A stretch of 64,000 nt of DNA from Eledone cirrhosa (GCA_964016885.1 OZ024742.1:193254001-193318000); one strand, 5' to 3'. Shown: positions 23,698 to 60,300, counted from the stretch's first letter. Notes: generated by a model not told the origin, from the sequence alone. Numbers and translations: made by a program.

Positions 23698-23791
23698 ACC
23701 CCGACGGCTGAGCTCAAGCCGTTTCGACGGCTAATTCTGGACTAAATGAAAATTTATCCTGGTATTTAAGTAACCGATCTTCTCAAGGGAT
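23698..23791 (-). ncRNA. Type I hammerhead ribozyme, U3:A8 core (family B)
   Basis: ATCCC-TTGAGAA-GATCGGTTA...TAGCCGTC-GAAA-CGGCTTGAGCTCAGCCGT-C-GGGGT; GUC triplet. Confidence 0.8.
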
Positions 23792-23804
23792 AATTCCATA
23801 TATT

Positions 23805-24150
23805 GTGAAAGCAGGGCAAACTCTTAAATGACCTCAGGTCGCACAGAATGGATGTGATAGCTATTTGCGAGTCCAGGATCAACTGCGAGCACCAACTGGT
23901 CCCTATCTTCGACGACTTTGAAATATATGCATCTCTCTGTCAGCCACGGCGTGGGGCGGGGTGGTCGTTCTGCTGCGAAAACACCAGGGCCTCGCAACAC
24001 GGAAGGTACACCTGGACCCGGAAGGTCGACTGGTGGTTCTAGACGTAGGCAGTAGTGAAGGTGGTGCCTTCAGGCTGGTGGCAGCGTAAGCCCCATCTGG
24101 GACACCGCGCCCGGATTTCTTACAAACCTAGAGACTTTTCTGGGAACTAA
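23805..24150 (+). mobile_element. LINE (L1/Tx1-like) APE endonuclease fragment
   Basis: NDLRSHRMDVIAICESR resembles the APE D-I-x-x-x-x-E-T motif, followed by GGV-like and LVAAxAP remnants. Confidence 0.6.
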
Positions 24151-25529
24151 GAGTGTGAAATGAAATTTCGTTTCATTTTTTTCCGTTTATCGTTTTCGGT
24201 GCACCCGGCCGATTAACCCACTGGATATGCAAATTGGGCTACCCAGCCGTTAATATGCATAAGGTAACTATATACGTTCAACAATCTGGCAGGAAGGTAT
24301 ACGTTGCTGACGATAGCTAATAAGCTTGAAACTAGTACAGCGTTCCTTTGTCTGTGTTGAACAAACGAGCAACGATGGTTGCTGGACACTGCGGCTTAAT
24401 ACGCGGGATGTTTGTTTACAAACACACCGAGCATTATAATAAATGTTCGGTGAATCCATACGTCCATACGTACATATATATATGTGTGCATGTATGTATA
24501 TATATATACATACTACTGTACGTCTGTATACATATATGTATGTACGTGTACATACTTATATATATATATATATATATATATATATATATATATATATATA
24601 TATATATATATATATATATATATATATACAGTATGTTCGCTTATTATGCGAAGATGCTTAAAGCAAATTCCCGTAATTGAAGTCTAACTTTCTGATAAAT
24701 AAAAAAAGTTATAAACCATTATTTACGCAGCAGAGTGAATATTTAACAATATTTCCTCCAGAGGCATTGAAGATACCTAGTTTTTCTTTTCCACCTACCT
24801 TCCTTTTTCTGATTACTGTATATCACTATCTACTGCCATTCATCACACTTGAAAACCGACCCGAGATGCTTGAAATTATCTATCTGCTTCAGTTGTGCTC
24901 TATTCACATGTAGAGTCACTCCGCAGGCTTCGTTGAGATGACGAGTGTTTCAGTTTTCGCAGCACTTATGTTAATGAGAATGCATAATTAACAATTTTAT
25001 TTCACCCTCAGTAATTTGAAGTAAGATAGATTTACAATTCCTGACGAAAATCTCATATATATATATACAGTGAAACTAATAAACCTTTGTTCGTACTGCC
25101 TCTCTCTTTTGTTCCCGTTCAATTTTTCACTATTCACTATATATATATATATATATATATATATATATATATATATATATAGTGTAGTTAGTACGGTGAA
25201 AATCTGGTGTTGGTACCAAATCGATATACAATAAATATTTTTCATATGTAAACGAAACTTCCTCGTTTTTTCTATTATATATATATACATGAATTATGTA
25301 TAACATATTTGGCAATATAACGAATGTTTAATTAAAAACATTTAGAAGACCATACGCTATCAGTTATATATATACATATATATATCTATAAATACATTAT
25401 ATATATATACATATATATATATATATAGGAACGAGTTCCTATTACCCACTCTACTACCCTAAGTATTGAGTACTTTGGTGCGTTATGGTCCAGCTGGTTC
25501 CTTACCACATTTCCTTCGTTATATATATA

Positions 25530-25930
25530 CAGGGTGTTCGGGATAAATTTGACAGCTTCATCAGGAAAAAGAAAAAGTGCTTGGTATCTACAAAATTTAT
25601 TTGATTTAAAAGAAATTCAATGGACAAGGAAATTACACTATTGTCAAAGAGTTTTACTCAAAATAACCGCCATTAGCGTCTATTACAGCCTCAATCCGGG
25701 CCCAGAACCTGGAGCAAGCTGATTTTACACTTTCCCTGGGAAGGCCCTCAAAAACTACTTTAATTCTGTCGATTAACTGGGCTTTTGTAGTACTGGCACG
25801 GCGATTGGTGTCTTTCTCTACAGCGCCCCATACATAATAGTCCATGGGGTTAAGATCAGGGGAGTTCGGAGGCCAAACATTGGGACTGGTGTAGTCGTAA
25901 AACTTGGCTGACAACCATTTTTGACTTTTC
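25530..25930 (-). mobile_element. Tc1/mariner-superfamily transposon 3' end
   Basis: WPPNSPDLNPMDYYVWG...VIDANGGYFE*; terminal sequence TA|CAGGGTGTTCGGGATAAATTTGACAG. Confidence 0.9.
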
Positions 25931-26125
25931 CTCCCCCTCCCCCTCCCCAGTATCTTCTTTGACCTCATGCCCAGCTGTAGCTGGCACTACCAACGCTTGA
26001 TTGGGTCTACTCCACCCCCTCCCCTCTTTCTCCTACTGGCAGGTTTAGCCACCATCTCCCCTACTAATTTGCAATCACAGAATTACTACTGACTTTTGAC
26101 AATCACTTTCACCATATATGGAATT

Positions 26126-26219
26126 ACCCCTTGAGAAGATCGGCTATTTAAATACCAGGATAAATTTTCATTTAGTCCAGAATTAGCCGTCGAAACGGCA
26201 TGAGCTCAGCCGTCGAGGT
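26126..26219 (+). ncRNA. Type I hammerhead ribozyme, U3:A8 core (family B)
   Basis: ACCCC-TTGAGAA-GATCGGCTA...TAGCCGTC-GAAA-CGGCATGAGCTCAGCCGT-C-GAGGT; one stem I mismatch. Confidence 0.75.
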
Positions 26220-57727: not shown

Positions 57728-57794
57728 ATATATATATATATATATATATATATATATATATATATATATATATATATATATATATATATATATA

Positions 57795-58815
57795 AGAATT
57801 TGTTTAGCAAGATACTTTATCTGAAAACGTGTGTTGAAACAGATAGTGTTATGCTTTGGGAGGGTCATGTTGCCAATAAGAAACACACGCACCATGTGCT
57901 TTCACTCCAATTTAGTATAAATTAAATTCATAAATTTAGGAATTTGTAAATTTCCAGTTGGTTGGTTGGTGCCACAACCAGACGATTGTTCATATATTGT
58001 CAAAGTTCTTTGGTCACACATTTTGTGACCTCTTCAGTGACTGGGGATTTTTTTCTTTGTTTTTGTGCCTCTCCTTTGTTCTGTCCTACGCCATCTTGTT
58101 TTTGTGTGTGTTGTGTGCTTAGTTTGCGCATGTGTTACATACGAGTGTCTGTGTGTGTTTATATTTGTTTATTTATTTGTTTATTTACATGTTATTGGTT
58201 GGTTGTTTGTTCTATGTGTGTATGTGTGTTTTCATTTTGTCCTTAATTGTAAGTTGTAATGTTGTAATTCCATTCAGGTTGTCTATTTAATTTGGGTTGG
58301 AGTTCCTTTATGTTTATTGCCTCTGTGATTTGTCTAAACATTGCGTCTGTTATGTATGTAGATTCAATTTTTATTTCTATGTTCTCTAATTTACCCTTAT
58401 GTTCTATTTTAGCAGATGAATCTTTTCTATCTTGAAGCTCTCGCCAGTGTTCATTTATCCGTTCTCCTATACTACGAGCTGTCTCACCTATGTACACTAT
58501 ATTCCTATCTCTACATTGTCCTTCAGTATATCTTATGCTATATACTACATTTCTAGTTTTACAGTTAATATGAAAACACACACACACATAGAAAAAACAA
58601 CCAACCAGTAACACGTAAATAAACAAATACATAAATAAATAAACAAATACAAACACACGCAGACACCCGGATGTAACACATGCGCAAACTAAGCACACAT
58701 CACACACAAAAACAAGATGGCTTAGGACAGAACAAAGGAGAGGCACAAAAATAAAGAAAATAATCCCCATTCACTGAAGAGGTCACATGATGTGTGACGA
58801 AAGAACTGTGACAAT
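57795..58815 (-). mobile_element. Truncated Penelope-like element with GIY-YIG fragment and inverted pseudo-LTR (family G)
   Basis: CKTRNVVYSI...VYIGETARSIGERINEH...RQITEAINIKELQPKLN at 58243-58563. Pseudo-LTR 57995-58240 is inverted at 58570-58815, with hammerhead-like CTGAAGA...GAAA at 58770-58812. Confidence 0.88.
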
Positions 58816-58911
58816 ACCGGAAATTTATTATTTTCTATTTAATTTTTAATAAACATAAATGAATTAATACCAAAATAAAATAAAATAAAATAAAATAAAT
58901 TAAATTAAATT

Positions 58912-59430
58912 AAATAGAAAACAGACGAAAAAACGGTTCAGTACTATACGAACATGCCAGACAACAACACAACGGTAACATAGACAACATAGAAATTAGA
59001 ATAATATCTAAACATAGAAATGACCCAGCAGATAGGCAAATCAGAGAGGCCAGTGAAATAGAACTTAGAAGGCCAAGGCTAAACAGAAAGAATGAATGGA
59101 ATAACAACAACATCCAAACAAACAACACTGACCTAAGAGAAGTATAAATAAATAAATAGATAAATAAATAAATACATACACAAGCAGAATAACAACAAAA
59201 CATATAAACACACACTAGTAAAGATAGAATACATTAACCAATACACAGTCACCCAATCACGAACACACATCAAACAAAACACTATACACACACGCAAACG
59301 CATGCACAAAGAAGACAAAATAAAATAAACAAATAAATAAATATATAAACAGACTAAATAAAGATGGCGTAAAAAATACAATGCAACGGGAGGAAACAAT
59401 AGCAGATGTGCAACAAAAGAACTTTGATAA
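58912..59430 (+). mobile_element. Second GIY-YIG C-terminal fragment + decayed family G pseudo-LTR
   Basis: Plus frame SVLYEHARQQHNGNIDNIEIRII...RQIREASEIELRRPRLNRKNEWN*. Confidence 0.75.
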
Positions 59431-59931
59431 ACTATATATATGTGTTTGTGTCTATATTGTGTCTATATTGTATCTGTATTATTTTTGACCGTTGGTCAGT
59501 CAATGGCAACATTGAGGACCGAAAAAATTAGATTACCGATATAAAACACACAGAAGCGAAAAGCAAAAACCAATCAAACAGTGAGTGTGTTCTATTATTA
59601 ATTCTGGCAATATTACACAAATATGACCCTCCCCAAGTATAACAATATATATATATGTGTGTGTGAAAAAAACCACAGACACTTCATCTCAACTCTACTT
59701 TTGAAAAGCAGAAGAACTGCAAAACCGGTAAAGGAACCAAATATTTATTTGGTTCCTTTATATATATTTTTTTTAAATAAGACTCCTGATGCATTTTCGA
59801 TTTCAACATTTTTTTTTATACTTTCAGTCGTGTAGGACACGTTGGTTATTTTTCATTTTATAAAAAAACGTCACTTTCTTATATATGTATATATATATAT
59901 ATATATATATATATATATATATATATATATA

Positions 59932-60300
59932 TAGAAAAAGTGATGTAATAGAAAATGCAACTGAAGTCTTATTTTTTAAAAAATTATATATATATTTATT
60001 TGGTTCCTTTACCGGTTTCGCAGTTCTTCTGCTTTTCAAAAGGTGAGTTGAGATGGTGGTTTTTCTCACATCTGTGAGAAAAACCACAGATGTGAGAAAA
60101 ACCACAGACCCTCCATCTCAACTCACCTTTTGAAAAGCAGAAGAACTGCGAAACCGGTAAGGGAACCAAATAAATATATATATTTAAAAAAAAAATAAGA
60201 CTCTAGTTGCATTTTCGATTTCATCTCTTTTTCTTTATACTTTCACTCGTGTAGGACACGTTAGTTATTTTTCATTTTATAAAAAAACCTCACTTTCTAA
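59932..60300. mobile_element. Family E fold-back element
   Basis: Inverted arms centred ~60080, TA-flanked. Confidence 0.88.
60006..60043 (-). ncRNA. Minimal hammerhead, U3:A8 core (mirror at 60126-60163, plus)
   Basis: CCTT-TTGAAAA-GCAG.AAGAA.CTGC-GAAA-CCGGT-A-AAGG; ACCGGT palindrome as stem III. Confidence 0.8.

Follow-up and report, generated by a model that had tools for sequence, protein, structure and literature searches.

Does a hammerhead core in which U3:A8 takes the place of C3:G8 (UUGAnAA rather than CUGAnGA) mark a ribozyme on which its carriers depend? The question is raised by a 64,000-nucleotide (nt) stretch of the Eledone cirrhosa genome (GCA_964016885.1, OZ024742.1:193254001-193318000; hereafter, the window), in which an original prediction made from the sequence alone recognised nine such motifs in five repeat families, namely, B, E, H, I, and the family of an element at 49176 (hereafter, 49176). 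The window has ~34% G+C, many microsatellites and repeats that seem cephalopod-like, and the whole genome measures 3.0 Gb. Our analysis makes it reasonably probable, from sequence comparison, that these are type I hammerhead motifs with an already published U3:A8 core, located in the terminal repeats of Penelope-like elements (PLEs) and in non-coding derivatives, that they would likely cut themselves slowly as two-copy dimers, and that selection on them is likely firm in family I and loose in the coding families.

A motif descriptor that left positions 3 and 8 free and used family anchors recovered all nine sites. Each does carry UUGAnAA, although the prediction had placed the motifs at ribozyme edges and not at the heptamer, and five of the nine lie on the minus strand. 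The predicted layout was borne out throughout: every site has the type I arrangement of stem I, core and stem II, the latter starting with G10.1-C11.1, and a palindromic helix III. Except in family H, stem II is followed by GAAA, the palindrome (ACAAGGCCUUGU, ACCGGU, or ACGG(C)-loop-(G)CCGU), and then either GUC or GUA. Alone, the heptamer TTGAnAA is uninformative, because it occurs 88 times in the window on both strands; the full descriptor gave 5 U:A and 7 C:G matches there, versus 0.06 U:A matches and 0.86 of any kind per shuffle (50 shuffles). At the gathering threshold, Rfam returned no window match for any hammerhead family, canonical motifs included, and among the 150 weak matches listed of 203 there was no hammerhead, only hairpin and simple-repeat matches.

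Genome-wide counts of exact pattern matches, which are lower bounds and count both arms of one insertion separately, revealed that U3:A8, and not CUGAnGA, is the family consensus, as had been predicted. Among the first 100 matches listed for each family, U3:A8 was present in 100 for family I (502 matches genome-wide), 99 for E (11,944), 98 for H (6,275) and 100 for 49176 (2,004), as well as in 95 for relatives resembling I (756 matches). The 4,245 matches of family B comprised 3,211 U3:A8, 1,010 C3·A8, 22 U3·G8 and 2 C3:G8 cores. Reversed-pattern controls gave 0 in each count. These data support the conclusion that U3:A8 is the consensus of the families rather than the decay of single copies. 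An old canonical family, with 78 C:G, 12 C:A, 7 U:G, 3 other and 0 U:A cores among the 100 matches listed, decays to C:A and U:G and never to U:A, and therefore shows the mutational direction. A C3·A8 match in another family (locus L224) was likewise set aside as decay of a C:G family.

A search with N3 and N8 free, as the prediction had proposed, was conducted on 80 evenly spaced 10-kb pieces of the genome (800 kb; descriptor score >=11); this descriptor misses families H and 49176. It gave 52 matches (C:G 27, U:A 19, U:G 2, C:A 1, other 3), versus 9.7 matches (U:A 1.7, C:G 0.3) in each of three shuffles of the sample. The 19 U:A matches trace to 11 loci, one of which is probably a chance match. 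Roughly four in ten of the detectable hammerhead motifs here are thus U:A (19, versus 27 C:G), and would be missed by a strict CUGAnGA search, as would more if H and 49176 were counted. To this extent the proposed large hidden class exists, but U3:A8 has already been published with a descriptor of its own. Beyond the five named families, the sampled loci held at least three further U3:A8 families (L237, L192, L202, L239), one of them in 592-nt tandem units (L237) and another flanking a 715-aa Hydra-type frame (L239). The window also holds canonical C3:G8 motifs of at least four further families, at 1548, 4742, 5310(-)/5356, 36833(-)/36987 and 39183; in several of these, helix III is AUAUAUAU, resembling the (TA)n target.

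The five families had been taken to be unrelated, which our comparisons contradict. Over 123 nt, of which ~100 nt lie upstream of the core, E and H share 72-73% identity (E-value 6e-11), and the elements that end in E, H and 49176 all appear to be Neptune-type. Because of this homology and these shared carriers, the five families reduce to at most three lineages, namely, Neptune-type, Hydra-type B, and I. How often U:A arose was followed on protein trees, both built from proteins of this genome. On the first, from a quick search, U:A needs three changes; on the second (16 rows, support 88/94), it needs one, and a clade of Hydra-type A8 families was not rejected (p-AU 0.15). Two C:G labels (L221 and L389) present in the first were removed from the second because the hammerhead lay upstream of two unrelated reverse transcriptases. 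Since the published Hydra and fish Neptune elements were found using canonical descriptors (PMC4209133, PMC8557442), at least two U:A origins are likely here.

Families B, E, H and 49176 occupy a fixed place ~1 kb downstream of a GIY-YIG endonuclease, i.e., the terminal-repeat position downstream of a reverse transcriptase (RT)-GIY-YIG frame, and in long copies the frame lies between inverted arms. More specifically, the motif was found behind >30 endonuclease ends at about 1.06-1.22 kb in family B, behind 11/11 ends at 0.62-1.12 kb in H (ends with >=84% identity to the H-type query), behind 10 ends at 0.93-1.31 kb in 49176, and behind 3 ends at 1.02-1.05 kb in E. The B proteins show DKT, a CxCx5C linker, a C-terminal GIY-YIG domain and (TA)n targets, the first two being Hydra marks according to PMC8557442. 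The proteins of H, E and 49176 carry a CX4CxxC finger and group together; DKG was seen in H only, the extracted E and 49176 proteins beginning later. By these motifs E, H and 49176 appear to be Neptune-type elements, with the reservation that Nematis too has a linker finger. Canonical C:G motifs were found 1.2-1.5 kb behind other Hydra-type frames, and several further Hydra-type frames had no type I motif behind them.

Family I is of another kind, and no consistent link to an RT-GIY-YIG frame was found for it. Its units, of 320-321 nt, are repeated in tandem without a frame, each with a hammerhead (six units in L001/L002, three in L022-L024), and its inverted arms lie in (TA)n. It thus resembles a retrozyme that would be moved by PLE enzymes. 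As for its helper element, distances to Hydra-, Neptune- and third-type endonuclease pieces were inconsistent, and we claim no link.

Within the window, the copies are inverted stubs with (TA)n flanks, an arrangement described for PLE insertions (PMC8557442). Family B is represented by a motif at 23698..23791 (-), with core UUGAGAA at 23786-23780, a long loop II, a palindromic loop in helix III and GUC at 23705-23703, which is a 3' end piece of a Hydra-type PLE adjoining (TA)n at 23542-23605; and by one at 26126..26219 (+), with core UUGAGAA at 26131-26137, a stem I (CCCC/GAGG) that contains a C-A mismatch, and (TA)n after the motif. The family I insertion has (TA)n on both sides (56948-57004 and 57726-57794) and two motifs: 57119..57163 (-), with core UUGAUAA at 57159-57153, within a non-coding unit of 320 nt that is followed by part of a second one, and 57519..57563 (+), in the inverted arm, with core UUGAUAA at 57523-57529, the 12-nt palindrome ACAAGGCCUUGU and GUC at 57557-57559. 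Two family E motifs are intact and form the arms of a palindromic insertion with (TA)n flanks: the left at 60006..60043 (-), with core UUGAAAA at 60039-60033, GAAA, ACCGGU and GUA, and the right at 60126..60163 (+), with its core at 60130-60136. A third, at 35494..35531 (-; core UUGAAAA at 35527-35521), is decayed, with mismatches in stems I and II, and its inverted partner arm (core 35608, +) carries G12A, as does the remaining E copy of the window (core 59701). The 49176 motif (49175..49222, -; core UUGAAAA at 49217-49211) has stem II GAUGG/CCAUC, ACCGGU and GUC, and belongs to a Neptune-type end piece joined to an inverted truncated arm; its stem I is weak, with a C-U mismatch that is present in the commonest form of the family. 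Family H has a left arm at 55316..55353 (-; UUGAAAA core at 55349-55343), in which GCAA replaces GAAA (A13C, the family norm), and a right arm at 55614..55651 (+; UUGAAAA core at 55618-55624), in which GUAA does so; the latter is the end piece of a young Neptune-type element. G12-A13-A14-A15.1 and U16.1-H17 are present in families B, E, I and 49176. Family H lacks A13 and is a hammerhead-derived motif rather than a member of the consensus.

PLE frame pieces also occur in the window, e.g., at 13368-16030 and 58243-58770. A single RT piece used as genome query gave 40,187 first-look candidates, and Pfam, applied to six window frame pieces, gave one weak GIY-YIG match below the cut-off (58246-58770) and none for the other five. 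A Hydra-type PLE at 13130-16030 (DKT-type family, CxCx5C, broken frame) has a canonical CUGAUGA hammerhead at 13140, and in another copy (L385) this motif again lies ~1.3 kb behind the frame. A third PLE type, with DKS in L189 and GIY-YIG at its C terminus, is found at 58243-58770 (-) and in L235, L326, L327 and L227; in the loci checked it had no type I hammerhead of its own <=2.6 kb from the endonuclease, and may use another hammerhead layout or none. In the family B group, 30/36 anchors in the 800 kb were without core, and most pieces lack the hammerhead 5' half (in the window, 8336-8602 and 20500-20700); 15 of the 30 coreless anchors are short palindromes that resemble miniature DNA transposons and are actually back-to-back PLE ends. 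Elsewhere in the window, the frame pieces at 25654-25986 (-) and 35845-36782 (-) appear to resemble Tc1/mariner transposases, and 61373-61932 contains 2.8 tandem copies of a 197-nt, SINE-like unit with relatives at 12223, 21815-22188, 32758 and 47004.

Covariation among family I and its relatives (38 distinct sequences) was used to assess whether selection keeps the fold itself. In this set 93.7% of the cells were paired, versus 19-42% in slid controls, and there were 54 two-sided changes versus 17.2 in shuffles (0/500 as high). Each of the three helices had such changes, which included changes of the 1.1-2.1 pair (CG 17, UA 16), and the core was nearly fixed. E and H covary in stem II (GCAG/CUGC versus GCAU/AUGC). 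The changes in all three I-group helices support selection on the hammerhead fold. Three contig sets aligned to the family I unit gave 14 listed differences, in organisms A and C and none at position 3 or 8, a weak indication as it comes from contigs only. In organism-A contigs (1-3 contigs only), a helix III variant of family I (aligned to L002:1525-1540) has apparently changed both sides of one pair.

Predicted folding energies point to a dimer. Relative to the best monomer fold, the hammerhead fold is less stable by 6.7 kcal/mol in I and 7.1 kcal/mol in E, and relative to the best dimer fold by only 1.8 (I) and 1.4 (E) kcal/mol; the palindromic helix III, evident in the sequence, favours the dimer in both families by these energies, and dimer-dependent PLE hammerheads have been described (PMC4209133). 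Since only the dimer favours the hammerhead fold, the proposed assay of 57519-57563 as a monomer would probably give a false negative; the family B motif at 23698-23791 may work as a monomer too. We suggest that the palindromic helix III strands of two neighbouring repeats would pair, that each core would cut after GUC or GUA, and that the cut units might be re-joined or circularised and then pasted into (TA)n by the RT and endonuclease of the element. C-to-U and G-to-A would be the easiest changes here, making U:A the nearest re-paired state of C:G, and a master element with U:A would pass its core to all daughters, such that thousands of copies may record few events. Since the inverted arms of the window copies would pair with one another, most of these copies are likely inert stubs.

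A number of observations weigh against slow dimeric cutting under selection. In the I-group alignment, the extraction pattern fixed several columns, and kinship can beat shuffles without structure and inflates the counts of two-sided changes. Isolated monomers did not adopt the hammerhead fold in predicted folding, and PLE hammerheads are slow even as dimers (PMC4209133). Only 3/292 copies, in a sample enriched for whole cores, had a 5' end <=1 nt from the predicted cut; a re-joined or circular template would likewise leave no 5'-end footprint. Family B contains 1,010 C3·A8 copies versus 3,211 U3:A8 copies, and family H has GCAA (C13) in 98/100 among the matches listed, with 12 GAAA copies genome-wide versus 6,275.

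The C3·A8 copies of family B are not decay, because the A8G-type change is found in only 24/4,245 copies and 8/9 long C·A copies form one clade nested within U:A (SH-aLRT 98) in a DNA tree of the 40/87 copies with >=400 nt of homologous upstream sequence. Of the coding changes shared by this clade, 8 are synonymous and 0 non-synonymous, whereas changes confined to single copies number 42 and 62, respectively (Fisher p = 0.001, from only four copies); the clade therefore transposed with its own protein, the frame being under purifying selection. Its coding identity is 94.7-95.9%, versus up to 99.4% in the youngest U:A clade, and it looks older than the latter. We rejected C3·A8 as an intermediate from C:G to U:A, as older B relatives and diverged B subfamilies keep U:A and the C·A clade is nested inside U:A. 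A small older B relative (L301-L308), with a Hydra-type frame 0.68-0.69 kb upstream, has a U3·G8 wobble in 8/8 matches. Family H is young, with coding regions 97.2-99.3% identical and a 784-aa open frame. Two large, recently copied lineages likely have crippled cores, as judged from their sequences; therefore, the U:A swap alone is no proof that cutting is needed. A13 would be essential to the hammerhead as part of the consensus core used in PMC3088659. No record of amplified C3·A8 or C13 lineages was found in print, but Lünse et al. 2017 (dimeric PLE hammerhead variants), which lay outside our search, may describe variants including position 13; a literature search for hammerhead A13C gave no match.

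Of the selection for catalysis originally proposed, the part that concerns the fold is supported by the I-group covariation, and strict selection on the 3:8 pair is not supported, in view of the amplified C3·A8 clade (1,010 copies), the U3·G8 relative (8/8) and the ~6,000 C13 copies of H. It is very improbable that strict catalytic selection fixed U:A separately in each of five unrelated families and that U:A represents an unrecognised ribozyme class. U:A is indeed common (19/52) and occurs in both Hydra-type and Neptune-type elements, one protein tree asks for three changes, and the canonical descriptors by which published Hydra and fish Neptune elements were found favour at least two origins here; but the class and its descriptor are in print, E and H are homologous, the second tree needs one change, and amplified mismatch lineages exist. 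More serious, though in our judgement still unlikely, is that the hammerhead is a passenger in protein-coding elements: cleavage would be dispensable, the core would drift under AT bias (C:G to U:A to C·A, U·G or C13) and be copied along with an active master, and only non-coding tandem families such as I would depend on it. A derived C3·A8 clade that transposed with its own protein, the near fixation of C13 in the young family H, and the missing pile-up of 5' ends at the predicted cut site would all be expected from a passenger, and PMC8557442 calls hammerhead function in PLEs unclear and allows that they may simply parasitize them. A passenger fits less well with the retention of U:A across diverged B subfamilies and across E, H and 49176, with genome-sample matches that are nearly all C:G or U:A (46/52), with the stem II covariation of E and H, and with a C·A clade apparently older than the youngest U:A clade, which resembles a dead end.

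Cores that look crippled could also be rescued, either because C3·A8 acts as a protonated wobble or because E or 49176 strands cut H transcripts in trans. The ACCGGU palindrome of helix III is identical in E, H and 49176, the cutting and the cut strand of a dimer stem from different copies (PMC4209133), and for a PLE-linked motif of Saccoglossus a U3·G8 core has been printed (PMC4209133). In stem I, however, the E strand (CCUU) and the H strand (AAAA) match at two pairs only, and we give such rescue little credence. Slow dimeric cutting, with firm selection in I and loose selection in the coding families, remains our preferred explanation. A broader interpretation, offered tentatively and with more doubt than confidence, is that natural mutagenesis of the Penelope hammerhead core is recorded in the genome, coding lineages having spread with C13 (~6,000 copies) and C3·A8 (~1,000) while the core of family I stayed fixed amid covarying stems; autonomous PLEs could then dispense with self-cleavage, which only the retrozymes riding on them would need, or the core would tolerate changes long thought lethal. 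Matched pairs for PLE hammerhead function are provided by sister lineages distinct at a single core base (A13 in E versus C13 in H; U:A, C·A and U·G in B).

The U3:A8 swap itself changes little, being already published for the same kind of element, and the novelty claimed for it falls away, since the class has been in print since 2011-2014. Natural U3/A8 covariation was reported by Perreault et al. 2011 (PMC3088659), who cite Przybilski and Hammann 2007 for the earlier demonstration that the pair is active in vitro. In one type III ribozyme only a G:C swap rescued the 3:8 pair (PMC9901934), and the activity of U:A therefore depends on context. In Schistosoma mansoni Cercyon elements, U3-A8 replaces C3-G8, and a dedicated descriptor gave ~1,300 matches versus ~2,000 canonical ones (Cervera and De la Pena 2014, PMC4209133), UUGAUAA and UUGAAAA cores being printed in the supplement.

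These Cercyon PLE hammerheads are the closest known system. They share with the motifs described here the type I layout, the palindromic 15-16 region, G10.1-C11.1, the terminal-repeat position, dispersal as single and inverted copies, UUGAUAA and UUGAAAA cores, and a large share of U3-A8. Here, in contrast, helix III is a 6-12-nt palindrome or a hairpin and not minimal, and the carriers are Hydra- and Neptune-type elements; in I, E, H and 49176, G10.1 directly follows A9, without the extra base of the minimal subtype, and these four families belong with the palindromic-helix-III subtype as set out in the available text of PMC4209133. That text shows no counterpart of the amplified C3·A8 and C13 lineages. 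The U3/A8 variants of PMC3088659 have the same compensatory pair, which is rare there and the family norm here (copies number in the tens of thousands). Family B resembles Hydra-clade PLEs (Craig et al. 2021, PMC8557442) in the C-terminal GIY-YIG, DKT, the CxCx5C linker, (TA)n targets and inverted arrangements; the hammerheads described there are canonical, whereas B has U3:A8, C3·A8 and U3·G8 subfamilies. Finally, metazoan non-LTR retrozymes, proposed to be non-autonomous derivatives of PLEs (PMC7229834; bioRxiv 10.64898/2026.07.22.740005), consist, like family I, of non-coding tandem units with one type I hammerhead each, from which family I is set apart by its U3:A8 core, its inverted truncated arm and its (TA)n flanks of the Penelope kind.

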